IMG/VR virus record: IMGVR_UViG_3300027969_000043
Location: 1 to 64,000 of that record
Reading direction: 5' to 3' (one strand)
Source of the DNA: a virus
Length of the DNA: 64,000 nucleotides
Part shown: positions 1 through 44,364 of the stretch, one piece after another
Position numbering within the stretch: the stretch's first letter is position 1
Layout: every line of letters starts with the position of its first letter
Notes under the pieces: model-generated
The model's input: the letters and a program-made list of their open reading frames with translations, nothing else
Databases searched by the model: none
What the model was told of the DNA's origin: nothing
Translations under genes and position numbers: made by a program

Positions 1-179
1 TAAACAAATTTATATGCCTCTTCAATTTCATCCACAATGTGTGGATATTTTTTCTTATGCATTTCTTTGTTTCTTGTTACTAACTCTTCCCAAGTTTCTC
101 TTCTTTGTAGTTCTGGCATGTACTTAGCATATTTCATATGTACGGTAATATCAGATAAAATTTTTGTTGATAAATCCAT
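1..179 (-). CDS. nrdJ: Ribonucleotide reductase, class II (B12-dependent) type, N-terminal fragment running off the left edge
   Basis: Manual translation from ATG at 179 gives MDLSTKILSDITVHMKYAKYMPELQRRETWEELVTRNKEMH. The KYA..RRETW.E.V.R motif is typical of NrdJ N-termini. Confidence 0.7.
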   Translation of the reverse strand, partial: MDLSTKILSDITVHMKYAKYMPELQRRETWEELVTRNKEMHKKKYPHIVDEIEEAYKFV

Positions 180-205
180 TTTAAATTAAATTTGTTTTTT
201 GGTTT

Positions 206-1639
206 TTAATTGTTGTTATTTTCTTCGTCTGAGACGTTATCTGTATTGTTAAGAACTTTTTTTCTTTCTTGCATTCCGTTTAATAAACCAGCAACATAGT
301 CGGTAGTTTCTTTTTCTTTCCCTTTATTGAATTCTCCTTGGGTCCTAGCTTTTTTATTAGGGTTCATATCTATTTGAATTCTAGAATTATCAAAGATTAT
401 GTCTTCTAATATTATACCATCCTTAGCAAATCTAGATTTTAAGATGGCCATGGTAGCCGTTCCATTTTCTTTTTGGTCTAGGGTTTTAGCTATTGAAACA
501 ACGAAGTGACCTATTTGTCCTTTCTTGATTGAGCCACCCATTTGGTCAGATTCAACAACTGTTGCTTTGATTGAACTTCTATTGCCCTGAACAGCGGTCC
601 ATCCTGCCATATCTAATTCAGATAATAATGTTTCAAATTGTCTCATTACATTACCTTCGCCAACATTAACATCATCAAATTTCCTAGATGGTTGTACGCA
701 GTCAATATAATCAACTAAAACGATATCTGGTCTAAAGCCTTGTGCTATCAACTTTCTAATATAGTTTCTAATAATTGGTATTGTTGTTCCATCACTAGGA
801 AATTTTTTAAGCCTTAGTACACCTTTTTCAGATTCTTTTTGTTTAACTAGATTCTTTAATTCATCCTTGTGTAATGATAAGCTATTAAGTTCGTAACCTG
901 ACCAACAAGCCAAATGCTTTCTTTGAATAACCTTTGCGGCATCTTCAAAAAATATTTGCAACACATTGTAACCTAAGTTCTTGGCTGTATTTGCTATCTT
1001 GGTAATCATTGTAGTTTTACCAACACCAAATGGTGCTAATATAATCGCAAGTTCACCTTTTGATAACCCACCATCCATGATTTCATCTAAACCCTTTATA
1101 CCAGTCGGTATTGGCTTTCTGAAGTCATCTAATAGTACGGACTCAATATTTTCTAGAACATTTATGCCATTATCTTTAAGGTCACCATGTTCTAATGCTT
1201 TTTTTAATAACTCTTCACACTCATCGTATCTAGCATCATCACCAACTTCAATAATACTGCTAATTTGCTTGATTGATTTTTTTAATTCTTGTGTTTTGCA
1301 AAACTTCATTGCTTTTTCTTGAACACCAAGAGTATCATTTAGGCTAACGTCTTTTATTCTCTTTAACTCCGCAAGCGCCCATTTTTTATCAATTTCATTA
1401 GTTATAACATCTAGTAGTCTGTATTCTAGACTACCGATATCTATTATAATGTTATGTTTTGCATAGGCCTCCTTTATTGTTGAAACAATAAGTTTTAGCG
1501 CATTACCCTCAAAATAGTTTGCATCAATTATTTCAATTATTGATTCGGCAAATCTGTTGTCAACAAGAAGTTGTGCGATTAGTCTAAGTTGAAAATCATC
1601 CCCTAGATACCCAAAACCTTCTCTATTTATTTTTGCCAT
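206..1639 (-). CDS. dnaB: Replicative DNA helicase (DnaB / T4 gp41-like)
   Basis: PTG..GLD...GGL..GEL, Walker A APFGVGKTT, Walker B VLVDYID, Q-x-N-R and KSRF motifs. Confidence 0.92.
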   Translation of the reverse strand: MAKINREGFGYLGDDFQLRLIAQLLVDNRFAESIIEIIDANYFEGNALKLIVSTIKEAYAKHNIIIDIGSLEYRLLDVITNEIDKKWALAELKRIKDVSLNDTLGVQEKAMKFCKTQELKKSIKQISSIIEVGDDARYDECEELLKKALEHGDLKDNGINVLENIESVLLDDFRKPIPTGIKGLDEIMDGGLSKGELAIILAPFGVGKTTMITKIANTAKNLGYNVLQIFFEDAAKVIQRKHLACWSGYELNSLSLHKDELKNLVKQKESEKGVLRLKKFPSDGTTIPIIRNYIRKLIAQGFRPDIVLVDYIDCVQPSRKFDDVNVGEGNVMRQFETLLSELDMAGWTAVQGNRSSIKATVVESDQMGGSIKKGQIGHFVVSIAKTLDQKENGTATMAILKSRFAKDGIILEDIIFDNSRIQIDMNPNKKARTQGEFNKGKEKETTDYVAGLLNGMQERKKVLNNTDNVSDEENNNN

Positions 1640-24558: not shown

Positions 24559-24829
24559 ATGATAAGGGAACTTCCCCAGATTTTATTTTATTTTTTAATG
24601 CTTCACCACTCACCTTTGTTTTTCTACTACCCTTAGCGTTTGGATTTCCCCTATTTGTTATCTCTTCAGCCTTAGCTTGTTCTTCTTGTTTTGACTTAAT
24701 AAGCATTCCCATGTAGTATCTTCTTTCATTTGTTGGCATATTTAAAACGTCATTATAACCTATTTTTAAATATTGCATACAAACAAATATCTCTTCCCAT
24801 AAAGATGGTTTATATTGGTAAGTCAGGCC
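24557..24829 (-). CDS. Tail assembly chaperone second ORF, probably expressed as a frameshift extension (gpT-like)
   Basis: Overlaps the 3' end of the 412-aa gene at a U7 run. LWEEIF..MQYLKIGYNDVLNMPTNERRYY resembles gpT / gp51-type short helical chaperones. Confidence 0.65.
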   Translation of the reverse strand, partial: GLTYQYKPSLWEEIFVCMQYLKIGYNDVLNMPTNERRYYMGMLIKSKQEEQAKAEEITNRGNPNAKGSRKTKVSGEALKNKIKSGEVPLS

Positions 24830-26048
24830 AAAAAAATCTGACGTTAAGGGGAAGAAAGGTAGAAATAGACTCACCTCTAGGAGTCTTAACTTCGATTGAT
24901 AGGTCAACCCCACAATCTATTTTTTCAATGTAATCTTTTAATTCTTTAGAATCACGAACCCTCATTTTTTCGATAAAATCTTTAATAAAGCCTTTATCTC
25001 TATTACCATTTATATCTACAATTTGTCTCTCTAATCTATATGTAATTACACTATTTACAGGTATTTCATTTTTTTCATCCTCAGCAACCAACTTTTCAAT
25101 TTGGTTTAAATCACCTACTGTCAACAATTTAAATTTAATATTTGCCTTTGCTATTGGTAAATAAAAATCAAAATAACCTTCAGCATCTGGCTCTTTCGAT
25201 AATTTAATAGTTTTTAGGCTATTTAAATCAACTTCGCTTTCAAATGGTGCACCATCTTCATCATACATTGTAATCGGGTACATTTCACCATAACTTGTTG
25301 CTCTTAACCATAACATGATAGCATTTCTATCACCAACATGTAAATCATTATATCTTAGGTCTGGTTCCAATAATTTTCTATTAATTAGAATTTCCAAAAA
25401 TTCACCACTCTGTAATAGATTCGGAGACGTTAGGATATTCTCATCTGCCGTTGTCATATAGGCAACCTTAACACTTGATTTTTTATTTTTATATAGTTTA
25501 CCCTCAGAAGGTAAAGGAATAACGTCAAAAGCTGCGTTATATTGTGGTTGGCTTAATTGTTGAATATACATATCACTGTTATTCATAATTAAATTAGATG
25601 GTCCCATATTAGTTATTGGTTGTTTAGATTCTGATTTCAAAGGAACTTTTTGTGGTTCTTGATACTGCGGCTGTTGTTGTTGATATTGCTGCTGCTGATA
25701 CTGCTGCTGATATTGTTCTTGTTGTACCTGTTGCTTTTGTGGTTGTTGTGGTTGTTGTTGATACGGTTGCTGTGTCCTTTCAGACGCCGTATTAAAACTA
25801 TTTTGATATTGTTGAGTATTCTCAACATTTCTTTTCAATTGTTCATCTCTTAATCTAATTTGTTCTTCAGTCCTTTGACGCATAACTTCGACCGCTGACA
25901 TGTTAGTTTCGTTCATCGAGTTGGTATATATTTCGTTTGCGGCTTCGATTCTCTTTGCTTCGTAATCCGAATCAACATTAACTGGTTGTTGAGGTGTGTT
26001 TTGGCTTTGTGGTGTGTTTGTTGGAAACACATTTGGTTTTTTGTCCAT
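24810..26048 (-). CDS. Tail assembly chaperone / baseplate hub assembly protein (T4 gp26-like) with a Gln-rich N-terminus
   Basis: IPLPSEGKLY..VAYMTTADENIL..DRNAIMLWLRATSYG..C-terminal FFWP. Lies between tube and tape measure genes. Confidence 0.72.
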   Translation of the reverse strand: MDKKPNVFPTNTPQSQNTPQQPVNVDSDYEAKRIEAANEIYTNSMNETNMSAVEVMRQRTEEQIRLRDEQLKRNVENTQQYQNSFNTASERTQQPYQQQPQQPQKQQVQQEQYQQQYQQQQYQQQQPQYQEPQKVPLKSESKQPITNMGPSNLIMNNSDMYIQQLSQPQYNAAFDVIPLPSEGKLYKNKKSSVKVAYMTTADENILTSPNLLQSGEFLEILINRKLLEPDLRYNDLHVGDRNAIMLWLRATSYGEMYPITMYDEDGAPFESEVDLNSLKTIKLSKEPDAEGYFDFYLPIAKANIKFKLLTVGDLNQIEKLVAEDEKNEIPVNSVITYRLERQIVDINGNRDKGFIKDFIEKMRVRDSKELKDYIEKIDCGVDLSIEVKTPRGESISTFLPLNVRFFWPDLPI

Positions 26049-26843: not shown

Positions 26844-29783
26844 TTATATTAAACTACTCATTATTTTTTTTATTCTTTCTATCTCTTCAGTCAATACTTT
26901 ATTTTTACCATTAACCGATTCATATGTTGCTGGTTTAAATGGTTTAGGTTCATCATCTGATGATTCACCACCACCACCAGACTCACCTGAAGACGCATCA
27001 GCATCTGAAGCTCCAGCATCACCACCACTAGGCGGCGTAGCCGTAGGTGCACCACTTCCACTAGCAGCACCCCCACCAGTACCACCTCCACCAGCAGCAC
27101 TTCCACCCTTTCCATCTGGTTTTGACTTAATACCTAATTTAGCAGCCTGCTTATCTGTATTTTGTTGTTGACCACCCTTTGCAGCCATATTTTTTTTCTG
27201 TTGGAACATATATTGAAACAAACCTATTGCATCAGTCATAAATTGCATTAAATGCTTTTTAAATTTACCTCTATCTTGAGCATCTTTTTCTATTTGTGTA
27301 CGTTTAAATTGAGCCTCAGCCTCGTCAATATTTTTAGCACCAACTTTACCCATTCCAGCTAACTTATCCATTAAATCACCTTTTTTAAATTTACCAGTAT
27401 ATACTGTTTTAAAAATGTCATTGATAAATTTAGCTAAATTTTCATACGTTTGTGGGTTAGCAGATGAAAGATTAAACATTTTATTAAAATCAGTTAATAT
27501 AATTGGATTTTGTTTAAATGTTTGAAGTTTTTGGTTAAAAACTTTATCATCCCCACTTTTCATATTTCTAAGCTTATTCCTAATCTGCTCAATTCTATTT
27601 AAAAAATCTTCAAACTCTTTAACTCTTTTAGGACTAACGTTTTTATTAAGATATTTAACAAGCTCTTTATCTCTAAAGTATTTAGCTTCAGACAAAGGCT
27701 TTTTTAAATCTGCCGTCTTAACCGCGTATGTTTTTTTCTGAGGTCCGTCACCATCAGCATCTATTTGTGTACTTCCTGGTGAAACATCTGGAATTGTAAC
27801 TGTAACGTTTCTACCTTTGTAAATTGCTTTATCACCCTTTTTAAATGTTGTTACATTTGTATCTACATTTGATTCATCATCTGATTTACCCTCTGCTCCA
27901 GCACCAAACTTCTTATTGCTAGCAACAACAAATCTAAATAAGTTTAATAATGAATTATATAAATCATCGTTAAAACCGCCTTTACCATCACCTTTACCTT
28001 TATCACCACCTTCTTCTTTACCTTTATCTTCAATTTTTTTAGGGTCTTGTGCTTCATCTTTATCAATGGTTGGACCTTCTGGTTCTACAATACCAGCACC
28101 ACCCTCAATGTTTAACATTGATTGGTATAGGTCATTAAGTGTTTTTGCTCTAGATTGTTTTTGACCTTTCATTCTCATTATCTTAACAAGAGCACCAGCA
28201 CCCAAAAGAGCAACACCGATTGGGCCTAATACGGCACCAAATCCTTTTGCTACTAAATATCCAGTACCAGTCTTAATACCTGTTTTAATTGCTACTTTGG
28301 TAACAATTTGTGGTACCATTTTAATAAGAATAGATGTCAAGTTTCTACCAGCTATTGTACCGTATAAAGTTGTGTCAGGAGTTAATTTACCCGTTCCAGA
28401 TGCGCCACCGTGGAACATATCATTAAGTGTTTTAAATTGGTTTGGGTTATTAACTAAATCATGAAGACCTTTAGCTGCTTCAGTTGGTTTCATCATTACA
28501 CCACCTCTCTGACATAATAAATCAATACCCTTATTAGCATCACCACCACCAATTTGCTTAAGTGCGTCAACCAATTCTTGAGGTTTTGAATTTGCATCTA
28601 ACGGATGCTCTGTAAGACGACCTAAAAGTTTATAAACACCTTCACCAGGCTTAATATCATTTAATATTTCACTTTTTGTTTGCAGTAACTCAGTTGTTGT
28701 TTCTGTGTCAGTATAGTTATACGGTTGGTCAAATAAATGCTTAAACCATTCTGTATTTGCTATCCAACTAAATGCACCCATTGAACCACCTATACCTGCT
28801 AATAACAATGGAAGTTTATTTGACTTAAGTGTTTTCATTCTTTCACTGTCAAAATCTTTACCACCATCACCACGTTTAGCTTGCAATGTTTTTCTTACAT
28901 TTGCTGCATCATCTTCATTAATTGAGTAGTCAACACCCTCTTCATATCTAGAAGCTAATGTGCTAGGACCATCCCAATTACCTACTTCACCTAATCCTAA
29001 TTCTTCTCTACAATCATTAAGTTCTAATAGGTATAAATAATTTAATTTATCTGAGTCTGTAATACCTTTTGATATAGCAAGGTCAACAATTGCTTTTGCT
29101 CTTTCTTCACATTCTTTAGGACTACTTATAGAATATTTTAAATTTTTACCAGCTTTTTTAAGCTTGTCACCAATATTGTCAAAAAAACCTTCTTCTATTT
29201 TTGTTTCACCTAAACCAAAACTTTCGTCTATTTCTTTTAATTCCTCTTCAGACACTTCAACAACGTTTCCCTCAGCCTCATCAACAACTGAATAAGCTGC
29301 TGTTAAATCAACATCTAAGAATTTTTTAACATATTCTCTAAGGTCGTTGATAATACCGTTGGCCGCATCGATAGGTAAATAACCCTCTTCATTTGGTTGT
29401 TTTAATGTTGCAGCAACAATTGAATCATAAACAGAAGAAATACCCATAACGGTATTTAAAAAATCAGCACCCTTTTCATTATTAGGGAATTCTGGATTTT
29501 GTTCTTTCATTTGAGCATCAAGGGCTTTAATCATTTCATTACCCTTTTTATCTATGATTTGCTGAATTTTAGCTGCGGCCTCTTGGTCAATTTTTCCCTT
29601 GCCAAAAATTTTACCACCAGCCTTATATCTACCCAATTTAGATAGACCATATTTAATTTTTTCCCACATTCCTTCGTCAATCATTTCTTCATTCATTGTT
29701 GGGTCAACTTCAACCATCTCTCTTAACATGTGGTTGATAACAACATAATGTTGTTCTTCTGTTAATATAATTTTTTGCGGCAT
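26844..29783 (-). CDS. Large putative virion internal / ejection protein with two hydrophobic segments
   Basis: N-terminal KIILTEEQ, many [ILMV]-x-E motifs, C-terminal LTEEIERIKKIM. TM-like LPLLLAGIGGSMGAFSWIA and GFGAVLGPIGVALLGAGALV. ATATTTATA upstream. Confidence 0.5.
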   Translation of the reverse strand: MPQKIILTEEQHYVVINHMLREMVEVDPTMNEEMIDEGMWEKIKYGLSKLGRYKAGGKIFGKGKIDQEAAAKIQQIIDKKGNEMIKALDAQMKEQNPEFPNNEKGADFLNTVMGISSVYDSIVAATLKQPNEEGYLPIDAANGIINDLREYVKKFLDVDLTAAYSVVDEAEGNVVEVSEEELKEIDESFGLGETKIEEGFFDNIGDKLKKAGKNLKYSISSPKECEERAKAIVDLAISKGITDSDKLNYLYLLELNDCREELGLGEVGNWDGPSTLASRYEEGVDYSINEDDAANVRKTLQAKRGDGGKDFDSERMKTLKSNKLPLLLAGIGGSMGAFSWIANTEWFKHLFDQPYNYTDTETTTELLQTKSEILNDIKPGEGVYKLLGRLTEHPLDANSKPQELVDALKQIGGGDANKGIDLLCQRGGVMMKPTEAAKGLHDLVNNPNQFKTLNDMFHGGASGTGKLTPDTTLYGTIAGRNLTSILIKMVPQIVTKVAIKTGIKTGTGYLVAKGFGAVLGPIGVALLGAGALVKIMRMKGQKQSRAKTLNDLYQSMLNIEGGAGIVEPEGPTIDKDEAQDPKKIEDKGKEEGGDKGKGDGKGGFNDDLYNSLLNLFRFVVASNKKFGAGAEGKSDDESNVDTNVTTFKKGDKAIYKGRNVTVTIPDVSPGSTQIDADGDGPQKKTYAVKTADLKKPLSEAKYFRDKELVKYLNKNVSPKRVKEFEDFLNRIEQIRNKLRNMKSGDDKVFNQKLQTFKQNPIILTDFNKMFNLSSANPQTYENLAKFINDIFKTVYTGKFKKGDLMDKLAGMGKVGAKNIDEAEAQFKRTQIEKDAQDRGKFKKHLMQFMTDAIGLFQYMFQQKKNMAAKGGQQQNTDKQAAKLGIKSKPDGKGGSAAGGGGTGGGAASGSGAPTATPPSGGDAGASDADASSGESGGGGESSDDEPKPFKPATYESVNGKNKVLTEEIERIKKIMSSLI

Positions 29784-29817: not shown

Positions 29818-30225
29818 TTAGTAAAATTTAAAGTCTGGAAACTTTTTTAATACAAATTCTTTTACTCTTTCTGGGTTATATCCTAATAGTATCCCTATCT
29901 CGTATGTTTCCTCTGGTGTTTTGGTTGGTAGATAACCATCTCTTTTTCTTGCTATGCTAGCCAATCTTGTTGCTTCTTCCTCATGGCCGTCACGATAAAA
30001 TACATACGCTCTATTTATACCCAACGGAAAATACTTTAATCCTGACGCTTCCAATGCGTCAACATCTGCAAATGTTGCACCGCCGTAAAATCCAACACCT
30101 CTTTTTCCGTCAATAACTGTCTTTAATGCTCTTGGATGTGAATATGCGTCCTCTGGTTCAATCTCTTCTGATAAGTGTTCTTTAATAAGACCATATTGTC
30201 GTTCGGTTATTATTATTTTTGCCAT
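29818..30225 (-). CDS. Hypothetical, possibly virion-internal protein (probable start MAKIIITERQ at 30225)
   Basis: Shares the KII(I/L)TE-x-Q N-terminus with the 979-aa neighbour. Confidence 0.6.
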   Translation of the reverse strand: MAKIIITERQYGLIKEHLSEEIEPEDAYSHPRALKTVIDGKRGVGFYGGATFADVDALEASGLKYFPLGINRAYVFYRDGHEEEATRLASIARKRDGYLPTKTPEETYEIGILLGYNPERVKEFVLKKFPDFKFY

Positions 30226-30244
30226 AAATATAAATATCATATAA

Positions 30245-30278: not shown

Positions 30279-31802
30279 TTATTCTATATTTAGTTCAAAT
30301 TTCATATTACCACAATCCCATATTCTATCATAACCCTTAATTTTCATTATTTCAAATTCAGATAGTTTGTTATCAAAACCTTCTTTAACTAATACATCCT
30401 TTCTAAAATTAAACCTATGATACCTATTGTTATATTCACCTATTTTAACATACCAATAATTTGGTGGTGTATTTTCAATAAATGTAAACCCATTTTTATA
30501 ATAAACAGTATTTTTATAATCTAAACCTGACCACCTAATGTCGGCATATGTTATTACTTTATTTGGTTTGTAATTATCAATAAAATATTTTAATAGTCTT
30601 GAAAACCCACCAACAACCCTGTGATTTTTTTTATTAACAAACCTCATTAATTCGTATTGATTTTCTTTATCACACCTACCCATTATTTTTCTTAATTTAC
30701 CAAATGTAATCAGACTAACTAATTCGTTATCATAAAATAATCCAAGTCTTATTTTATCGATTGAAGAATCTTGAATATGGTTTTTATTTAAAAATTCATC
30801 GGACACTTTCTTATCAACGCTCATTATTGAACATTTTCTAGCATATATTTTTTTATTATTTATCATTAAAAAATTTGATAACCTAGAAAGTACTATATCT
30901 TTCTTATATAAAATTTCATCTTCAAATATATGAACTAATTTTATGTTTGATTCGTGCGCTAGCTTAGATTTATTAATATGGTAATTTCTATCCTTTTCAC
31001 CATTTATCTCACTATGGTAAAAATTACCATTAACCTCGATTCCTAAATTATAGTCATGTAATAACAAATCTATTTCCTGCCCGCTTAATAGTTTTCTAGA
31101 ATTATCTAAATGGTCAATATTATTTTCGTTTAAAAAATCACGTATAAATGCTTCTAATTTAGAATTTTTAACCAAAGGAAAACATTTTCTACATATTGGT
31201 ATTTTACCAGAACCCAAAACTGTACTTGTAAACACGTTATTGCATTTTAAACATTTAAAATTATACGGCATAGATGTTGTCCCACTTTTATTTGCTGTAT
31301 ACTCATCTAATAACAATAAATTATTATCCTCTAATTTTGGTAATAAATTATTTATTTGTTTTTCTTTTAACGTATTCTTTAATTTGGTAACCAACCCTTC
31401 ATGTTTCATTGGATTATCAACTCCGTACTTATCCACCAAAATTTTCTTTAACCCATTTTTAAACTCATTTTTTTTAAAAATGGAATCAACTCCGTGTTTT
31501 TCAAAAAAACTTTTTTTACTAGCTAATATTCTTTTATCTTTATTCTCCTTAATTTTTCCCCACTTTATCCTACATTCACCAGAACATAACTTTTTTTTAT
31601 TGTTTATCTTAACTTCAAAATCATTGTTACACATATCGCATTTTCTAACCTCCCTAATACTTTCATCTTTTTTTCTACCTATCGTTTTGTTTTTGTTGGC
31701 AAATTCAAAATAGCAACTTCTTGAACAATACTTCTTATCCCTATGTTTATATTCGGCAATAAAATTATTATCACAATTAATACATTTTAATTCTATGTTC
31801 AT
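30279..31802 (-). mobile_element. Free-standing Hef-like homing endonuclease gene (zinc ribbons, PD-(D/E)xK/Vsr-like nuclease, GNAT-like C-terminal domain)
   Basis: CxxC...CSxxC repeats, K(H/Y)GVD repeats, EIDLLL...GIEVNGNFYHS and a C-terminal YELMRF...YADIRWS...YDRIWDCG domain. Has its own promoter and terminator and interrupts the sheath-tube region. Confidence 0.75.
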
Positions 31803-31920: not shown

Positions 31921-34900
31921 TTAAATGTTATCAAATGAAGCCCCTGTATTCATAATATTAAATTCTACAATTATAAATTCTAGAGCTCTTGTTGGTTTAA
32001 GGTAAATCTTACCAGTTAATTGATTTCTATCGATATCTTCTGGGTCGTTACTTAAAACAACTCTGAAATCTACTAAACCTCTTTCGGTTCTAATGCTATC
32101 CAATATTGGATTAACAAGTGACAAGAATTGATTTCTTACGATAGTATCATTTTGTTCGAACAACAATCTAATAGCCACAGCAGAGATAAGTTTTCTAGCT
32201 TGTAAAAGAAGTCTTCTAACATTGATTCTGTCAAGAGCACTTTCTTTAACTTGTAGTGTTTTATTACCCCAAATCTTAATACCATCAGATGTAAATGTTG
32301 CGATTGGGTTGATTCTATTTTCGTAAAGAACATCTCTTTCACTTAAAGTTAACTTCTTACGAGCTTTAAGAGCGTCAACGTCACCTCTTTGAATACCTGC
32401 TACTGCGAACCAAGGGAATGCTATGTTATCAGTCAAAGCGATGTTTCTCACAACGTCTCTTGTTGGTGGAACGTAAACATACACATTGTTCTCAGCATCA
32501 AGGATTTGAATCCAAGGCCAGTATGTTGCTGTGTAGCTACTATCATACATATCTGATAATTGGTCTGTTACGTCACCAACTGTTAATACTGTTCCTGCAG
32601 AATCGGTATCAGGCGTTGTTACAACATATAAAGAGTCAGCTCTGTCTTGCTCAATCATTTCGATACTAGCTTCAACAAGATTTGTGTTATCAAACGTATC
32701 AATACCAGGCGTAGCAAACACATTAACATTTACAGCCTCTGGGTTTTTAAATGTCCAGATACCCTCTAAGTAAGCGTAGTAATCAGATGTAATACCTAAA
32801 TCACCGTTAGTTAGAGTTTTGTTTGCAAACGTACCTACTGCTAAACCAGCAGCACCCTTGGTACCATTGATAGTAAAGCTATCTAAGTTAGTTCTTCTTG
32901 TTCTGTAAGGGTCGAAACCGTCGAATCCGCCATAAGGTGCAAAAGTAAATTTACGAGCGTACACTTTCTCATATGGGCCGTTAGCTAAACCAGCGTCAGT
33001 TCTAAACTGCCAGTCACCAGTATCAAATAAGAATATTGGACTATATGTGTTACCTGAGTTATCAATAACAACTTTAACATTGTCAATTGTAGCACCTGTA
33101 GCGTCGATATCCATGTGGAAACCTTTGGTTAAACCAGTCCACATATCATAATCTTGTCCAACAGGTATACCTTTGTAATCAAAGAAATCAGCGTCTATAC
33201 CTATTGTATTAGATAAACCTAAATAGTATTTACGTTTGTTTTCAAAAGCGCCATATTTTTGCTTATACATTATGCTTGGTGTTTGAACATCAGGGTTAGA
33301 GTTAATTTCATAATCTCTAACTGGGAATCCAACAAAACCAGCTGGGAATGCATCACTTGTATCAGAACTTTCATCAAGTTCAAGTAAAATGTGAGCAGAT
33401 TTTGATGCATATACACCATCTAATGTACCGATTCTTCTAGCAACAAAGTTGTTTGAAGTTGGGTCCATTGTACAACGTGTGTAAGCTTCGATGATATTAG
33501 GTGCCGCATCTGTATCATAAAAACCTCTTACCAATACATCAAACTCTCTTGTATCTGGTTTAATGTTAGCAATTGAAATTTTATATTGTTCGTTTGCTGC
33601 GTTACCGTCAGATATTGTCCAAATTCTAAATAATCTTAACAATTTATTACCTCTTAATTCTGATACAACATAAGGTGTAACAGCTGGTTGGTATTCTTGT
33701 AAGTAGTCAGAGTATTGACCAGCGTAGTCGATAATATCTAAATTGATACCTCTAACTTTACCATCATTAACATACTCAACAAACATTTTATCAAAGAATT
33801 CTTCAACGTATACTGCAGTTTCACCATCTAAAGCAGTTCTACCAAGAACTTTTGTTATGTAATTTCTTTGTGTTCTATCGAAAGAGCAATCATAAGAGAA
33901 TGCACCCTGTGTATTTGATGTACCAATTAAAGCGAATGAACCGTAAGGGTTTTGTTCTGCTGTGGTAATGCTTGAATTAAAATTCAATCCTGTTGTTGCA
34001 CTAACTTGGAATACTGGTAATTGAGTTTGAGCATTAACTTTACCTCTAGAACGAAGCAAAGTAATTAATTTATCCTCAACATCTGCGTATCCTTTACCAA
34101 CAGTATATGTTGTAAAACCAGATGTTGTACCTGTTTTATACATTGATATTGAAGTACCTGAGTAATAGTTTACAACTGCTGATGTTGTACCAGTATTATA
34201 AAACAAACCAGTACCTGAATATACACCTGTAAAACCAGATGTTGTACCTGTTCTATAAACTGTTAATGGGTCACCAGAGAAGTAGAATACATTACCAATA
34301 GTTGTACCTGTTTTATAGTTAATACCAGAACCAGAATAGAATGTTGTAACACCTGAGGCTTGGCCTGATATGTATGCTGCTGTTTGAGCGCCACTATACT
34401 GTATTGTAAATCCAGATGTTGTACCTGAGATAAGTCTAGTGTTTGAAGCACCAGTATAATATTGAATATACCCACTTGTCAAACCAGTATAAATATTTGG
34501 TGTTGATGTTGAACCTGTACTTAAAATAATTGCAACACCATAAACACCAACATAAGTTGTTGCATTTATTGCGGTATAAGAACTAGGAACACCTTGTACA
34601 CTATATAGTAATCCAACACCAGTTCCAGGTGAATTTTTTAAACCAAAATAATTACCTTGCAATATTCCAGCGGTTTCCATTGTATTATATGGTTCACTAG
34701 TTGTTAAATAAGTAACATTTACAGTGCTAGATGTTGTAGCGGCAGTAAATCGTATAAATGAACTAATAAGTGGTGTTGCTCCGCTAAAACCTACCGAACT
34801 TTGATTTAAACTTTGTGGTGTTACACCAGAAGTTGCTGCAGAGAATACCGCAGAAGCACCAACATAAGATGAACCGCTTTGTACAAAACTAAGAGGTACA

Positions 34901-36831
34901 CTAAACGATGTACCAACTGGTGCACCACTAAACAATGTGGCTAAACTAAAGTTATTAGCAACATACATTGCATTAAGAACATTGTTATTAATAACATAAC
35001 TTGTGCTGTTTGTTATTGGGTTTGTTTGATAAGTAATTAACGGATTAGCATTTATAGGGGTGGCAACACCACCTGTAGCACCAGTAGTTGTTGTATTAAT
35101 TGCTGCTGGAACAGTTACTTTACTTACAATAATATAACTTGAAGAAGCACCAGTATAAACCGCACCAGAACCTGTCATAACAAAAGGAATTACACCTCTA
35201 ACACCAGAATTTAACCCAGGTAATGAAGCTAAACTAAATAAAGAAGCGCCATAAAATGCACTTGTTAATGGGTCTGAAATTACAGTATTTGTTAATGAAC
35301 CACTAGTTGTTGCTGTATATCTAATTAATGGGTTATAGTTTGCTGTTGTTGAAACACCAGTACTAGATGCATTGAAATAGTATGGTGTAATACCTGTTTG
35401 TGATACAGTATATGTTGAACTAGCACCAGTAAAAATTGAACCGTTATAAATAAATGATAAAGGTATTGTACTAGTTGTACCAGTTGCTGTTGCGGGTAAT
35501 CCGCTAAGACTAATATTACCAGCTTGGTATAAACTATTAGTTAATGGGTCTGCAATAGTTGCGGTAATTAATGTATTACCAGTTGTTGCTGTATAATTTA
35601 TAAATGGTACAAAACTACCACTAGTTGTAGCCGCAGTTGTTGTTGTATTAATACCACTTTGCGTTAAGCCAGTGGCAATTACAACGTAGTTAGATTCATT
35701 ACCAGTAAAACTAGTACCTACGTTTACATAGTTTCTAGCTATTGAACCAGTCGCACCAACTGCCAAGCTAGATAACCCAGTTAAACTAAAATTTGAGTTA
35801 TTATAACCAGCATTTGTATTTGGCTCGTTGATTTGAACAGCAGAAAGAACACCACCAGTTGTTGATGTATAAACAATAAATGGATTTGTATTTGCGCTAC
35901 TAATTAAAGCAACACTAGCAGCACTTAAAGTCATTGTTGTTGTACCAGCAGAAATAAGTGTATAAACTGCACCAGCACCACTATAATTTGAACCACCAAC
36001 ATTTATAAATGAATTAGAAATAACATCAGATTGACTTATTGTTAGACTAGGCAATGTACTAAGACTAAAATTACCGTTGTTATAAAGGCTTGATAATAGA
36101 GTATCATTTATAGTTACTGTTACCAAATTATTTGAGGCGTCTGCTGTAAATGATGCAAATGGGAGGATACTTACATTTGTTAGTGTTGCACCTGTAGTTG
36201 TTGGGTCTAACACATTTGGTGTTGAACCAGCGTTAACAACCAACAATTGACTGCTAGCACCTGTAAATAAACCACCAACTTTTTCTAGCGAAACACTCAA
36301 CGATAATATTTGACCATTTGTTAATGTTGGTAACAAAGCTAAACTAACACTACCATTGTTAACTAAATAACTTAATAATGGGTCACTAATAGTTGTACCT
36401 ATTAATACGTTAGAGTTTGTTGCAGTATATACAATACTAGGATTATACGAGCTTGTTGTTGCTGTTATTGTTGAATTATCCAAAGCAGCATCCATCGTTA
36501 TACCCCAAGCTTTACCTGCATCATAACCAGAAAAACCAAGAATTCTTGTTACAAATAATTGGTTTGATTGTGATAGATATGATTTTGCGATATATGGTAA
36601 TTCATACAAAGGTGCGCCGTTTCCGTCTGGACCGTTTACCAATGTATTATTTAAACCACCGAAAAACGATTGAAACTCGCCGTAGTTACTTACGAAAATA
36701 GGTTGAAATGCTGGTCCTTTGGTTGTTTCACCCACCAAACCCAATGTCGTAACACCTACTTGACGTGTTACAAATGTTAAGTCTTTTTCTGAGGTGTAGA
36801 CACCTGGACTAACGAATACTTTTTCTGCCAT
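31921..36831 (-). CDS. Contractile tail sheath protein (T4 gp18-like) with an ~800-aa repeat insertion
   Basis: N-terminal SPGVYTSEKD...GETTKGP. C-terminal ATYWPW, PWFAVAGIQRG, LYENRINPI, WGNKTL, INVRRLL, FEQND and IYLKPTRALEFI. Confidence 0.95.
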   Translation of the reverse strand: MAEKVFVSPGVYTSEKDLTFVTRQVGVTTLGLVGETTKGPAFQPIFVSNYGEFQSFFGGLNNTLVNGPDGNGAPLYELPYIAKSYLSQSNQLFVTRILGFSGYDAGKAWGITMDAALDNSTITATTSSYNPSIVYTATNSNVLIGTTISDPLLSYLVNNGSVSLALLPTLTNGQILSLSVSLEKVGGLFTGASSQLLVVNAGSTPNVLDPTTTGATLTNVSILPFASFTADASNNLVTVTINDTLLSSLYNNGNFSLSTLPSLTISQSDVISNSFINVGGSNYSGAGAVYTLISAGTTTMTLSAASVALISSANTNPFIVYTSTTGGVLSAVQINEPNTNAGYNNSNFSLTGLSSLAVGATGSIARNYVNVGTSFTGNESNYVVIATGLTQSGINTTTTAATTSGSFVPFINYTATTGNTLITATIADPLTNSLYQAGNISLSGLPATATGTTSTIPLSFIYNGSIFTGASSTYTVSQTGITPYYFNASSTGVSTTANYNPLIRYTATTSGSLTNTVISDPLTSAFYGASLFSLASLPGLNSGVRGVIPFVMTGSGAVYTGASSSYIIVSKVTVPAAINTTTTGATGGVATPINANPLITYQTNPITNSTSYVINNNVLNAMYVANNFSLATLFSGAPVGTSFSVPLSFVQSGSSYVGASAVFSAATSGVTPQSLNQSSVGFSGATPLISSFIRFTAATTSSTVNVTYLTTSEPYNTMETAGILQGNYFGLKNSPGTGVGLLYSVQGVPSSYTAINATTYVGVYGVAIILSTGSTSTPNIYTGLTSGYIQYYTGASNTRLISGTTSGFTIQYSGAQTAAYISGQASGVTTFYSGSGINYKTGTTIGNVFYFSGDPLTVYRTGTTSGFTGVYSGTGLFYNTGTTSAVVNYYSGTSISMYKTGTTSGFTTYTVGKGYADVEDKLITLLRSRGKVNAQTQLPVFQVSATTGLNFNSSITTAEQNPYGSFALIGTSNTQGAFSYDCSFDRTQRNYITKVLGRTALDGETAVYVEEFFDKMFVEYVNDGKVRGINLDIIDYAGQYSDYLQEYQPAVTPYVVSELRGNKLLRLFRIWTISDGNAANEQYKISIANIKPDTREFDVLVRGFYDTDAAPNIIEAYTRCTMDPTSNNFVARRIGTLDGVYASKSAHILLELDESSDTSDAFPAGFVGFPVRDYEINSNPDVQTPSIMYKQKYGAFENKRKYYLGLSNTIGIDADFFDYKGIPVGQDYDMWTGLTKGFHMDIDATGATIDNVKVVIDNSGNTYSPIFLFDTGDWQFRTDAGLANGPYEKVYARKFTFAPYGGFDGFDPYRTRRTNLDSFTINGTKGAAGLAVGTFANKTLTNGDLGITSDYYAYLEGIWTFKNPEAVNVNVFATPGIDTFDNTNLVEASIEMIEQDRADSLYVVTTPDTDSAGTVLTVGDVTDQLSDMYDSSYTATYWPWIQILDAENNVYVYVPPTRDVVRNIALTDNIAFPWFAVAGIQRGDVDALKARKKLTLSERDVLYENRINPIATFTSDGIKIWGNKTLQVKESALDRINVRRLLLQARKLISAVAIRLLFEQNDTIVRNQFLSLVNPILDSIRTERGLVDFRVVLSNDPEDIDRNQLTGKIYLKPTRALEFIIVEFNIMNTGASFDNI
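34087..34494 (-). repeat. Seven ~19-aa repeats (Y-x-TGTTSG-x4-YSG) in the sheath insertion
   Basis: IYTGLTSGYIQYYTG / LISGTTSGFTIQYSG / YISGQASGVTTFYSG / YKTGTTIGNVFYFSG / YRTGTTSGFTGVYSG / YNTGTTSAVVNYYSG / YKTGTTSGFTTYTVG. Confidence 0.9.
34495..36489 (-). repeat. Seven diverged ~92-106-aa Ser/Thr/Gly-rich repeats in the sheath insertion
   Basis: Units start at about 36489, 36213, 35931, 35655, 35379, 35103 and 34812. Consensus P[LF]I.[YF]TAT...I.DPL...Y..GN[FI]SL..LP...SF...G..[FY]TGASS.Y.V...G.T. Confidence 0.85.
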
Positions 36832-37600: not shown

Positions 37601-38611
37601 TTACCATGTATAAACCCTTACTTCACCACGACCACCAGTACCACCAGCACCACTATTTCCAGTGTTGGTAGCATTACCACCACCACCACCTCCACCACCA
37701 CATGCACCACCATTTCCTCCTGCTTCACCGTTAATATTACCAGAAGCAGCCGCAGCACCCCCACCACCACCACCACCATTACCACATTTTATGGAATTTC
37801 CGCTAGCACCTGTACTACCAGATGTTGGCGCTGTTGAACTATTAGCCCCAGGTGCAGAACCACCACCTGAAATATATGACCCCGAAGTGCCACCAGAAGT
37901 CGGAGCAACACCAACATTACCACTACCAGTACTACCACCAACACCACCGCCACCAGCACCAAATATCGAACTACCCCCATCTTTAGGGATAAGGTTAGTA
38001 ACACCTCTAGAACCGCCAGAGCCACCACCATATTCAGCGTTTCCACTACCTAAACCAGCTGTACTAGAACCTAGTCCAGACGCTCCTTGACCACCTATAG
38101 CTATTAAAGATGCTACTCCAGGTACCCCACCACCGTATGTTGCAGTTGTAGTAATACCACTTAAACCAGCACCACCATTACCACCACCACCACCACCAAC
38201 CTGAGCTGTCGTTGCTGACAAACCACCAATACCACCACCACCAGCATAACCAATTAATTGTGTTGCTCCAGAACTAAAAAAAGAGTTTTCACCATTACCA
38301 CCACCTCTTCCAATACCAGAAATAGTTACACTAGCCCCACCAATACCGCCAGAACCAACAAATATTGGTTCTGTACTAGACAACGTACTTGCTAAATAAA
38401 ATTTTTCAGCATATGCGCCACCACCACCACCAGTCCCACCCGTTCTATTATTACCGTTGTTTGCTTTTGCGCCACTACCACCTCCACCCCCAGCACCAAT
38501 ACATACAACATATACGAATTTTGCACCTGTCGGTTTTACCCAAGTCGAATTACCAACAGTTGTAAACACCTGTAAATCTGGTACTTCGTTTATATTATTA
38601 TTTATTGCCAT
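37601..38611 (-). CDS. Glycine-rich (polyglycine II bundle) adhesin-like protein, paralog 3
   Basis: QVFTTVG..TW.KPTGAKFVYVVCIGAGGGGG ... GGRGEVRVYTW. Confidence 0.75.
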   Translation of the reverse strand: MAINNNINEVPDLQVFTTVGNSTWVKPTGAKFVYVVCIGAGGGGGSGAKANNGNNRTGGTGGGGGAYAEKFYLASTLSSTEPIFVGSGGIGGASVTISGIGRGGGNGENSFFSSGATQLIGYAGGGGIGGLSATTAQVGGGGGGNGGAGLSGITTTATYGGGVPGVASLIAIGGQGASGLGSSTAGLGSGNAEYGGGSGGSRGVTNLIPKDGGSSIFGAGGGGVGGSTGSGNVGVAPTSGGTSGSYISGGGSAPGANSSTAPTSGSTGASGNSIKCGNGGGGGGGAAAASGNINGEAGGNGGACGGGGGGGGNATNTGNSGAGGTGGRGEVRVYTW

Positions 38612-38623
38612 AATTATTTTTTT

Positions 38624-39610
38624 TTAAAAAGTATACACTCTTACTTCACCACGACCACCAGCACCACCATTACCAGCACCAATATCCGCACCACAACCAC
38701 CTCCACCACCTCCACCGCCTGCACCGCCTACACCACCATTACCACCTATTGTGTTTGGTGTTATTGTTCCACCACCACCACCACCACCAACACCATATGA
38801 AGTACCTGTACCACCTGATGTTGGTGATGCACCATTTGTACCGCCTGAAGCACCACCACCAACAACATAAGAACGACTAGTACCGCCTGAGGTTGAATTT
38901 ACAAGTATAGTACCAAGATAATTTGAGGTTCCACCAGCACCACCACCGCCACCACCAAATAATGATGAACCTCCAGGACCAATTGCTGGTGTAAGACTAC
39001 CATCATGACCACAACCACCTCCACCACCATATTCAGTTAAACCTCCATTAGTTGGGTTACTACCACCACTTGCCCCCGTACCACCAATACAAGTTTGAGC
39101 CACTACAGGGCTTACTGCGGCATAACCTGGTTGCCCTCCAATAGCAACCAATGAATCACCAACACTACCAGCCCCACCAGTACCACCACCACCACCACCA
39201 CCAGCACCTATATCAATACCACCTCTAGCACCACCACCACCACCATAACTAACCAAATATGTTGTTGCACCTGTACCAAAAAAAGAACTACCACCAATTC
39301 CACCAGATGTTGTTGACCCTGAAAGTCCACTGGTACCACCAGTACCACCAGCACCTACAACAATAGGCACCGTGTTAGCTAAATCACTTGCACTAAATAC
39401 TTTATAAGCAAAAGCACCACCACCACCACCAGCACCACCCCATTTAGGTGCTGTTCCTAAAGAGTATGAAGCACCACCACCACCTCCACCAGCACCAATA
39501 CACACAACATATACGAATTTTGCACCAGTCGGTTTTATCCATGTCGAACTACCAACAGTTGTAAACACCTGTATGTTTCTTGCAGAATTTATACTATTAT
39601 TTATTGCCAT
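38624..39610 (-). CDS. Glycine-rich adhesin-like protein, paralog 2
   Basis: Same conserved N- and C-terminal motifs, ending GGRGEVRVYTF. Confidence 0.75.
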   Translation of the reverse strand: MAINNSINSARNIQVFTTVGSSTWIKPTGAKFVYVVCIGAGGGGGGASYSLGTAPKWGGAGGGGGAFAYKVFSASDLANTVPIVVGAGGTGGTSGLSGSTTSGGIGGSSFFGTGATTYLVSYGGGGGARGGIDIGAGGGGGGGTGGAGSVGDSLVAIGGQPGYAAVSPVVAQTCIGGTGASGGSNPTNGGLTEYGGGGGCGHDGSLTPAIGPGGSSLFGGGGGGAGGTSNYLGTILVNSTSGGTSRSYVVGGGASGGTNGASPTSGGTGTSYGVGGGGGGGTITPNTIGGNGGVGGAGGGGGGGGCGADIGAGNGGAGGRGEVRVYTF

Positions 39611-39623
39611 TTTTAATTTATTA

Positions 39624-40616
39624 TTACCACGAATAAACCCTTATTTCACCGCGACCACCAGCACCGCCAGTGCCACCACTGCTAGCACGTGTACCGCCCC
39701 CACCACCTCCACCACCGCCACCAGGCGCACCACCAACACCACCATTAGTACCTGCTGTATTTAAAGTTGCGGTTCCACCGCCACCTCCACCTCCATCGCC
39801 AGAACCATTACCTTTATTTGTACCTGTTCCACCCGAAGTTGGTGATATACCACTTGTTCCAAAAGCACCACCCGTAATACCAGTATAAGTACCTGAACTT
39901 CCGCCTGGTTTTGCGTCATAAACAGTCGGTACGCTATTTGCACCTCCACCAGCACCGCCTCCGCCACCACCATATAATGAACATCCGCCTGAAAAATTAA
40001 TACCAGTCGTCGAAGTTCCACCACCCCCAGCACCACCATATTGAGCAGCACCACCCGACGGAGCAGCAATTGTTCCAGCGCCACCAGTGCCACCAAAAGC
40101 TAAAGTGGTTGTACTTGCTCCTGCTGGATTACCACCTGCAACAGCGGCACCAGCACCAGCAGCACCAACACTAACAGTACCACCTCCACCACCACCTGAA
40201 TTAGAAACTGCCGTAACTCTACCCCCAGCACCAGAACCACCTCCATAGGCTGTTAATATTGTTAAACCTGAACTAAATATTGAATTACCACCTGTAGAAC
40301 CAATAACACCTACGTTAGAGGCATTACCAGCACCACCCGCACCACCAGTCCCACCCGAGGCAACTGTAATTGGTTCTGATAACGATAACTCCGAGGCTAA
40401 GTAAAGTTTTGAAACAAAAGAAGCCCCTCCACCGCCACCACCACCCATTCTATATGTTGCTCCAGATGCTGAACCTCCGCCACCTCCGCCACCTCCGCCA
40501 CCAATACATTCAACATACACGAATTTAACCCCAACGGGTTTTATCCAAGTATTAGAACCTACGGACGTAAATATTTGAACGTTTGAAACTTCATTTATAC
40601 TATTATTTACTGCCAT
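39624..40616 (-). CDS. Glycine-rich adhesin-like protein, paralog 1
   Basis: Same conserved N- and C-terminal motifs, ending GGRGEIRVYSW. Confidence 0.75.
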   Translation of the reverse strand: MAVNNSINEVSNVQIFTSVGSNTWIKPVGVKFVYVECIGGGGGGGGGGSASGATYRMGGGGGGGASFVSKLYLASELSLSEPITVASGGTGGAGGAGNASNVGVIGSTGGNSIFSSGLTILTAYGGGSGAGGRVTAVSNSGGGGGGTVSVGAAGAGAAVAGGNPAGASTTTLAFGGTGGAGTIAAPSGGAAQYGGAGGGGTSTTGINFSGGCSLYGGGGGGAGGGANSVPTVYDAKPGGSSGTYTGITGGAFGTSGISPTSGGTGTNKGNGSGDGGGGGGGTATLNTAGTNGGVGGAPGGGGGGGGGGTRASSGGTGGAGGRGEIRVYSW

Positions 40617-43191: not shown

Positions 43192-44364
43192 TTAGTTTCC
43201 ATTAAGCCTAATTAAACAATTAGCAGTTACACCATCATAAGTTGTAAAATTTCCACAAACTAGTATTTTTCCATCTGATTGAATTGTACCTGAGCGAGTC
43301 GAATCATTAAATCCAACACCAGTAATAAATGAATTATCTTTACTACCATCAGAATTTAATCTAATTATACGGTTTGATGTGCCTCCATTATATAGTGTAT
43401 ACGAACCCATAAAAATTATTTTTCCACTACCATCTATTATATTACGAAACAATGAATTGCTATTAGCAAACCCAGTACCATAAACGAATAAATTATCTTT
43501 GCTACCATCTGAATTTAATCTAATAATACCATTTGCTGATATACCACTGTATGTTGAAAAAGTACCACCAACCAATATTTTTCCATCAGTTTGCAAACTC
43601 AAACCTTGAACAGTACTATCAAACCCAGCACCTATATTAAATGATGAATCTTTGGTACCATCAGAATTTAACCTAATAATACGATTTGCTGATATACCAC
43701 TGTATGTTGTAAAAGTACCACCAGCCAATATTTTTCCGTCACTTTGAATTGCTAAAGCGAAAAGAAAGTTTGTATTGAACCCAGTACCATAAACAAACGA
43801 ATTATCCTTGCTACCGTCAGAATTTAATCTAATAATATTATTTGCTGATATACCACTAAATGTTGAAAAAGCACCACATACTAGTATTTTATTATCAGAC
43901 TGAATTTTAATATCCCAAATTTGTACACCAATAATATCTTTACTAAATCCAGTACCTATATTAAATGATGAATCTTTACTACCATCTGAATTCAATCTGA
44001 TTAATCCATTTGCTGATATACCACTGTATGTTGAAAAAGCACCACCAACCAATATTTTTCCATCTGTTTGTAAACTTAAACTTAGAACAAGGCCATCAAA
44101 CCCAGCACCTGTATTAAATGATGAATCTTTACTACCATCTGAATTTAATCTAATAATACCATTTGCTGATATACCACTGTATGTTGTAAAATTACCAACA
44201 ACAAGAATTTTATTATCTGTCTGAACTGATACCGAATGCACTAAGGCATTAAACCCATCACCGATGTTAAATGATGGGTCGGCAAGACCTGGGATAGTGT
44301 TTGGATTTGGTCCAAATATTGCATTTCCTTTTATAATAGTATTTCCTAGTATATTAACGCCCAT
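43192..44364 (-). CDS. Delta-60 repeat beta-propeller protein
   Basis: About seven ~54-aa repeats of D.SF..G.GF...IQ.DGKILVGG.F.TYSG.SAN.IIRLNSDG. Confidence 0.85.
   Translation of the reverse strand: MGVNILGNTIIKGNAIFGPNPNTIPGLADPSFNIGDGFNALVHSVSVQTDNKILVVGNFTTYSGISANGIIRLNSDGSKDSSFNTGAGFDGLVLSLSLQTDGKILVGGAFSTYSGISANGLIRLNSDGSKDSSFNIGTGFSKDIIGVQIWDIKIQSDNKILVCGAFSTFSGISANNIIRLNSDGSKDNSFVYGTGFNTNFLFALAIQSDGKILAGGTFTTYSGISANRIIRLNSDGTKDSSFNIGAGFDSTVQGLSLQTDGKILVGGTFSTYSGISANGIIRLNSDGSKDNLFVYGTGFANSNSLFRNIIDGSGKIIFMGSYTLYNGGTSNRIIRLNSDGSKDNSFITGVGFNDSTRSGTIQSDGKILVCGNFTTYDGVTANCLIRLNGN

Follow-up and report, generated by a model that had tools for sequence, protein, structure and literature searches.

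The tail sheath protein gp18 of phage T4 (PDB 3FOA, 3J2M) is made of domains I-IV, in which three different folds are nested and the outermost points away from the tail; this domain I projects outward without touching other subunits (PMC3004832). A nested arrangement of related domains is also described for SI3 of the cyanobacterial RNA polymerase beta' subunit, where small beta-rich domains (the hybrid motif) are recursively inserted to a depth of six levels (PMC13114784). For large-genome phages, Evseev et al. 2022 (PMC9230969) described "type 3" multi-domain sheaths with outward accessory domains, "five and more" in number, mostly immunoglobulin-like (Ig-like) and non-repeated. According to the same paper, some sheath domains combine a segment of the outgoing chain with one of the returning chain, and adhesion or virion stability are proposed as roles; the words "repeat" and "nested" were not found in its text. 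Here we analyze the tail sheath gene of a stretch of viral DNA of 64,000 nucleotides (positions 1 to 64,000 of IMG/VR record IMGVR_UViG_3300027969_000043), hereafter referred to as the window. The gene lies on the minus strand at 31921..36831 and encodes P0001, a protein of 1636 aa, in which seven long repeat units are followed by seven short ones. We consider it likely that these units form a tower of seven nested homologous domains on a T4-type sheath, which is the best explanation overall.

P0001 resembles gp18 in its conserved C-terminal part and probably in its N-terminal part, with accessory domains, probably nested, between them, and its putative tower begins near where gp18 domains II and I begin. 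Unlike gp18, which nests three different folds, P0001 would nest one fold up to seven times. Moreover, gp18 domain I is one contiguous piece of 91 aa, whereas each level in P0001 would have two parts, a long piece on the way out and a short strand on the way back, and P0001 is 2.5 times the length of gp18. No sequence similarity of P0001 to gp18 domains I-II was detected by tblastn or profile search. The likeness to SI3 lies in the A1-B1-C-B2-A2 principle, applied repeatedly, although the protein, the fold and the function are unrelated. Nesting in SI3 is branched (8 domains, 6 levels), whereas that of P0001 would be strictly linear (A^nB^n), and no polymorphism of 1, 2 and 7 units among close relatives is described for SI3.

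Unlike the domains reported by Evseev et al., the units of P0001 were not recognised as Ig-like, and they give weak matches of the PAS, roadblock and longin type. Hoc-type Ig-like domains decorate virions and serve accessory adhesion (Fraser et al. 2006, as cited in PMC9230969). Between Ig-like decoration domains and the tower there would be a functional analogy only, as surface-exposed, dispensable, fast-evolving and exchangeable elements thought to bind carbohydrates weakly; the units of P0001 differ from them in fold and topology. The "hairy" tails of the phAPEC6 type carry separate fibres at three rings, which are not sheath outgrowths (PMC7247149). Nested domains are already known from gp18 and SI3, but the repeated nesting of one fold would be unusual for a sheath. 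An initial annotation of the window, made from the sequence alone, had regarded nesting at such depth in a sheath as novel, a claim that is tempered by the six levels of related domains described for SI3.

The repeat region comprises residues 115-915 of P0001, which correspond exactly to window positions 34087-36489. Alignment and unit hidden Markov models (HMMs) confirm that it holds, as the initial annotation had proposed, seven long units (A1-A7) and then seven short units (B1-B7) before the sheath core resumes, although the diverged long units measure 92-98 aa and not 92-106 aa; the short units measure 17-21 aa. All units lie on the minus strand. Unit HMMs and hhalign delimit A1 (residues 122-214; 36190..36468), A2 (residues 215-312; 35896..36189), A3 (residues 313-404; 35620..35895), A4 (residues 405-498; 35338..35619), A5 (residues 499-593; 35053..35337) and A6 (residues 594-686; 34774..35052), of which A1 is the proximal unit and is also placed by the unit tree. 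A7 (residues 687-779; 34495..34773) stands out by identity and divergence as the most diverged unit, and would form the distal tip. The motif of the short units identifies B1 (residues 780-800; 34432..34494) and B2-B6 (residues 801-898; 34138..34431, with borders at 801-820, 821-839, 840-859, 860-878 and 879-898), and B7 (residues 899-915; 34087..34137), to which MAFFT also aligns the single B of one-unit relatives.

Pairwise identity is 25-42% within A1-A6 and 17-29% between A7 and the others. The unit HMMs score 65-114 bits per long unit and 23-32 bits per short unit, and all seven short units fit x-Y-x-TGTTSG-x4-YSG. A7 passes into B1 through STGSTSTPN (residues 771-779), the turn-like passage noted in the initial annotation, and the core picks up again at KGYADVEDK. 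In composition, the insert has 3.2% charged residues and 50% T/S/G/N, against 21.4% and 28.4% in the core, and is thus a nearly uncharged, hydroxyl- and tyrosine-rich module. No Pfam match was obtained within residues 115-915, and no ligand-binding family was recognised there.

The seven-plus-seven arrangement is kept in ten of ten homologues from independent samples, which are 53-93% identical over the repeat region; hence it is neither due to chance nor to an assembly artefact. An artefact was further rejected on the grounds that the units are only 17-42% identical, so that an assembler could not collapse or expand them, and that the architecture is shared by 10 further protein clusters of several origins.

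Relatives were found with the sheath body (residues 916-1636) as query, which matched thousands of proteins. The best 120 of 6223 protein matches and the best 80 of 313 IMG/VR loci were inspected, the search covering proteins of 899 to 2863 aa. A word-indexed search with the repeat region retrieved the seven-unit clade only, and the core query was needed for relatives with one unit of each kind (1+1) or two (2+2). When residues 110-920 were searched by phmmer against 1.84 billion cluster representatives, there were 0 matches, P0001's own cluster included, probably due to the bias filter acting on a composition of 50% T/S/G/N. Given that this extreme composition likely set off the filter, the blank was not taken as absence of relatives. 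Composition filters may conceal a whole class of such inserts from routine searches.

The best 120 relatives have bodies 71-98% identical and fall into three length classes of approximately 945-956, 1060-1067 and 1635-1653 aa. Among 134 homologues (bodies 65-98% identical), 109 have an insert of 164-180 aa between the conserved flanks, 14 have one of 282-294 aa and 11 have one of 854-872 aa. When the sequences are read, the short class shows a single A and then a single B, and the middle class shows A-A-B-B. Insert lengths between the three classes, unbalanced forms, and forms with 3-6 or more than 7 units were not seen among the 134 homologues inspected. HMMs built from the units of P0001 alone were too insensitive for distant relatives and were replaced by HMMs from units of all classes, which counted (A,B) as (1,1) in 108 of 109 proteins, (2,2) in 14 of 14 and (7,7) in 8 of 11; in the three remaining seven-unit proteins, only the divergent A7 or B1 was missed at the chosen threshold. 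Since these HMMs were trained on the same proteins, their counts are annotation and not independent discovery. The IMG/VR scan gave 73 loci that have both flanks; by length, 70 correspond to one unit of each kind (n=1), one to n=2 and two to n=7. The numbers of long and short units, whose equality the initial annotation had proposed to test, therefore co-vary as 1:1, 2:2 and 7:7 throughout the 134 homologues and 73 loci. For annotation purposes, matched counts of long and short repeats offer an easy way to recognise nested domains in a sequence.

The units of the three classes can be related to one another. When aligned with MAFFT, the A of n=1 proteins is placed on the first long unit (a1) of n=2 proteins, and their B on the last short unit (b2), with a single gap across a2+b1. 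In P0001, the corresponding orthologues are A1 for the single A and B7 for the single B. The hhalign scores are 135 for A1 against the n=2 a1, 110 for A1 against the n=1 A, and 57-114 among A1-A6; the n=2 a1 and n=1 A score 52-135 against A1-A6, and A7 is weaker, with a best score of 41 (against A2). The n=2 a2 matches the n=1 A with a probability of 94% and an E-value of 1.1e-7. These sequence comparisons indicate that host and inserted domains are homologous and that A1-A6 form one family.

A view of the inserted module comes from two proteins that are 97% identical, P0036 (2+2) and P0038 (1+1), which differ by one contiguous block of 116 aa. The extra block of P0036 is made up of a linker with a full A and a B after it, and is placed exactly at the hairpin before the last B. 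This single-block difference shows that units are gained and lost as a whole nested module, and it fits the proposal of the initial annotation that B is a terminal strand and that insertion occurs at the A/B hairpin.

A model of residues 94-378 of the 2+2 homologue P0014 was obtained with AlphaFold2 from a MAFFT alignment of 14 two-unit and 109 one-unit sequences, with no manual editing. Its mean predicted local distance difference test (pLDDT) is 85.8, and 98 across b2. In this model, A consists of two short strands, helices and two long strands, and B is one strand of 16-17 residues. In structural comparison, approximately 35 single-domain PDB targets (PAS, roadblock, longin-like) align over only 60-80 residues that span model residues 33..246, i.e., a1+b2, while a second group of targets aligns 75-103 residues over approximately 114-128..223-233, i.e., a2+b1. 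The model thus suggests that a1+b2 form an outer domain, in whose last hairpin the inner domain a2+b1 is inserted. The best structural match has Z 5.3 (root-mean-square deviation 2.8 A, 66 residues aligned), and PAS domains reach Z 4.8-5.1 with 77-81 residues aligned, scores that are too low to name the fold and were used for segmentation only. This level of PAS-like match falls within common arrangements, and the domains are only loosely PAS-like. Foldseek gave no match at E<=0.001 against PDB and BFVD, and an Atlas shape search was weak, with a best TM-score of 0.32 and Ig-fold clusters at only 0.22-0.23.

The junctions between units agree with this topology. In 1+1 proteins, the turn that leads from the last A strand into B (e.g., ...IISSTGST-FTGITSG...) resembles the A7/B1 junction of P0001 (...IILSTGSTSTPN-IYTGLTSG...), such that the latter is like the 1+1 beta5-turn-B hairpin. 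A P-x-x-[LIF]-[ND]-x-[ST][ST]-T-G-like motif recurs in the outgoing linkers after A1-A6 and in the a1-to-a2 linker of P0014. There is no linker between A7 and B1, and successive B units are separated by 3-6 residues; therefore, the mirrored register A(k):B(8-k) is the only simple arrangement. From this connectivity and the n=2 model, we infer that B1 pairs with A7, B2-B6 with A6 down to A2, and B7 with A1.

Part of this register was also addressed by a split-chain fold, in which the N-terminal flank with A1 and A2 of P0001 was folded against B6 and B7 with the C-terminal flank, the 565 residues between being omitted and author-made alignments being used as input. The interaction prediction score from aligned errors (ipSAE) was 0.59 (0.65, 0.59 and 0.57 in the separate runs), compared with 0.00 for the best control; the partner pLDDT was 61-62, with no less than 75% of contacts common to the runs. 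Of 80 solved complexes used for calibration, 58 passed the mark, as did 2 of 110 mismatches, and scores up to 0.60 included only 7 of the 80 solved complexes and both of the passing mismatches. The result lends minor, weak support to a predicted pairing of A1-A2 with B6-B7.

Several points limit the case for nesting in this mirrored register. The domain split in P0014 relies on the end residues of structural alignments with Z<=5.3 and not on coordinates, and the 109 n=1 rows, which are gapped over a2+b1 in the alignment, could themselves favour a1-b2 coupling. AlphaFold2 on residues 96-935 of P0001 with 11 homologues gave no confident seven-level tower (pLDDT 39.6, predicted TM-score 0.22). 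The split-chain score counts formally as weak, and part of the interface may come from the two flanks. Divergence of A(k) and B(8-k) correlates with rho 0.64 (permutation p 0.07), which falls to 0.43 (p 0.40) without A7/B1; likewise, the mirror-tree residual peaks at A7-B1 (0.78), is mixed for other pairs, and is non-significant without A7/B1. Mean-field direct coupling analysis of a 123-row alignment (Meff of approximately 69) mainly returned artefacts of gaps and chain ends and yielded no usable contacts. Hence, the claim of the initial annotation that short repeat k completes long repeat 8-k holds in the model of the 2+2 homologue, where the last b goes with a1 and the first b with a2, whereas the seven-level prediction is uninformative on it. 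That a domain consists of A plus the returning B strand, and that such domains are nested, is nevertheless well supported, indirectly; nesting at all seven levels of P0001 is extrapolated from there, with the 7:7 count and the homologous motifs at the junctions of every level as indirect evidence.

In the proposed arrangement, the tower would stand at the site where gp18 has its outward-facing accessory domains. It would comprise seven homologous alpha/beta domains of approximately 110 aa each, in a loosely PAS-like arrangement, with each next domain inserted in the hairpin between the last strand of A and B. The chain would run outward from A1 to A7, turn at STGSTSTPN and come back from B1 to B7, B1 completing A7 and B7 completing A1, so both ends of the tower would be anchored in the sheath body. 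Every sheath subunit would accordingly bear an elongated projection. By analogy with known decorations, the tower may be an exchangeable, fast-evolving module for weak multivalent binding to glycans on host or environmental surfaces, with A7 and B1 as its most variable part. Fast evolution, swapping, low charge and a site like that of gp18 domain I fit an outward decoration.

The main alternative retains the nested topology but replaces the free radial stalk with an outer coat or mesh along the sheath, where contacts with neighbours would stabilise or shield the extended tail rather than serve adhesion. Virion stabilisation is raised as a possible role of extra sheath domains in PMC9230969, which also cites domain II of phage 812 as touching the neighbouring subunit; in addition, the n=2 model has long strands of 16-18 residues, which point to a stiff element, and a low-charge, T/S-rich surface could self-pack. 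We regard this coat as rather unlikely, however, given that the equivalent outermost domain of gp18 has no inter-subunit contacts (PMC3004832) and that near-identical cores thrive with 1, 2 or 7 units, which argues against a fixed role in a lattice. Furthermore, the presumed tip evolves fastest and the cassette is swapped between near-identical phages, both of which are more typical of modules that face the environment.

Equal counts in all three forms, over 134 proteins and 73 loci, make it very improbable that the region is composed of two independent tandem arrays, i.e., seven self-sufficient long beads and a separate beta-solenoid or linker of short units whose matching number is a coincidence. 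Although tandem duplication is the commonest source of repeats, and the low-confidence model of the whole insert gives every A its own beta-beta-alpha-beta-beta pattern, the lone B of the 1+1 proteins cannot be a solenoid, and in the 2+2 model b2 (pLDDT 98) goes with a1 and b1 with a2. An insert in a surface loop must also reunite its ends, which a string of seven beads alone cannot do. Neutral growth of repeats in a tolerant surface loop, leaving a tower with no function of its own, would agree with accessory sheath domains being dispensable for contraction (PMC9230969) and with the lack of a ligand-binding family recognised by Pfam. We nonetheless consider this improbable, as 11 homologues whose insert is 45% diverged retain each of the seven units as an orthologous set, truncated or unbalanced forms were not seen among the homologues inspected, and a highly expressed structural gene bears the cost of approximately 2.4 kb of additional coding sequence.

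Concerning the history of the putative nested tower, the seven-unit proteins form one clade in the sheath-body tree (support 1.0), and the two-unit proteins are scattered among the one-unit proteins. In the unit tree, each A(k) forms an orthologous set across the seven-unit clade, which indicates the tower is older than that clade. A1 clusters with the one-unit A and with a1, and A7 and a2 are on separate long branches. The pattern expected from serial innermost insertion, with the innermost units youngest and most alike, was not seen in this tree, in which saturation bars a firm conclusion. The B units are too short to be resolved, and no mirrored history of A and B was found in the unit phylogeny. 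Mean divergence among the 11 seven-unit homologues is 9% for the body, 3.7% for the N-terminus, 25-37% for A1-A6, 19-26% for B2-B7, 62% for A7 and 50% for B1, the last being the most variable of the short units.

The genes of P0036 and P0038 are approximately 99-100% identical in DNA outside the cassette and approximately 13% diverged within a1, and the genes upstream of them are unrelated. Given that divergence is limited to the cassette, the difference between them resembles an exchanged cassette or a local hot spot more than a fresh insertion. Growth by serial insertion into the innermost hairpin, as put forward in the initial annotation, is consequently no more than a possible mechanism: the saturated unit tree is without the predicted pattern, and the lone recent difference of one versus two units lies in a cassette that looks recombined. 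As a separate observation on two phages with sheath bodies approximately 99-100% identical in DNA (loci L081 and L009), positions 1-1500 of L081 are unrelated to the DNA of L009 directly upstream of the sheath start, where one of the two has a Laminin_G_3 protein; the 5' end of the sheath gene thus forms a sharp mosaic boundary.

A more far-reaching picture, which we put forward tentatively and hold to be possible but not probable, is that each subunit bears a rigid, double-anchored stalk of seven levels, perhaps 20-35 nm long, giving a bottle-brush tail. The levels (1, 2 or 7) would then be an evolvable, exchangeable cassette, enlarged by insertion of A+B at the terminal hairpin, and P0001, as a natural A^nB^n protein, would by its length tune the reach of the tail for surfaces of hosts or particles. 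If the tower is real, we found no report of a virion protein in which one domain type is nested more deeply. A family with depths of 1, 2 and 7 among close relatives would, if this is true, be an unusually clean natural case of recursive domain insertion, and a ready system for studying the folding of discontinuous domains and the growth of insertion architectures. The tail morphology would also be new, the sheath itself being "hairy", in contrast with the separate fibres of phAPEC6 (PMC7247149). A fast-evolving, swappable sheath cassette may affect adsorption.

The identification of P0001 as a sheath protein relies mostly on its C-terminal part. Its C-terminal 285 residues match tail sheath phrog_23 (over residues 1352-1634) with an E-value of 2.7e-56. 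Pfam families Phage_sheath_1 (PF04984) and Phage_sheath_1C (PF17482) score slightly below their gathering scores on this part of P0001, with 28.1 versus 31.4 bits and 23.0 versus 26.9 bits, respectively. A profile of close relatives matches solved T4 gp18 over gp18 residues 355-653 with E-values of 1.8e-33 to 8.4e-35. In a tblastn search, P0001 matched annotated sheath genes in 2665 phage records; the matches are to T4-like, cyanophage and Flavobacterium phages, over residues of approximately 1320-1636 of P0001 and at 32-40% identity. At the other end, the N-terminal core (residues 1-114; 36490..36831, minus strand) is almost unchanged across relatives, and the N-terminal 60 residues, which include the VSPGVY region, align weakly (8.9 bits) with the N-terminus of the solved 656-aa sheath chain 9ev2. 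The rest of the body (residues 916-1636; 31924..34086, minus strand), with the middle and the conserved C-terminal sheath domains, shares 72-98% identity with its counterpart in relatives that have 1, 2 or 7 units. P0001 is a T4-type contractile tail sheath, probably of a jumbo T4-like phage: the IMG/VR record has 168,871 bp and a CheckV completeness of 48%, so its source is probably a jumbo phage.

By sequence matches, the sheath gene sits within a tail or baseplate gene module. T4_baseplate (PF12322) and baseplate-hub PHROG matches are in the same neighbourhood, at window 24810-26048. The tail tube gene, expected close to the sheath, was not identified by Pfam/PHROG annotation of the neighbours, and two genes on the minus strand after the sheath, at 29818-30240 (140 aa) and 26844-29783 (979 aa), match nothing in Pfam or PHROG. 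The gene directly downstream of the sheath, at 30279-31802 (minus strand), has 507 aa and strongly matches "homing endonuclease" PHROGs (phrog_3339, E 6e-107). A 506-aa homologue of it (DUF7487, weak), seen at L081 4812-6192, takes the same place beside the sheath in two other phages. The gene is either a long-fixed endonuclease or a misnamed conserved gene.

On the other side of the sheath gene, three tandem paralogous genes of 328-336 aa, tail-fibre-like, lie at window 37601-40616 (minus strand) and match phrog_863 and phrog_754 (tail-fibre-assembly, minor-tail). The G+C content is 0.47 at window 38001-40000, which overlaps these paralogues, versus approximately 0.32 elsewhere. Also in the tail module, a 390-aa protein encoded at window 43192-44364 (minus strand) contains seven DUF5122 beta-propeller repeats, with an E-value of 4.5e-96.

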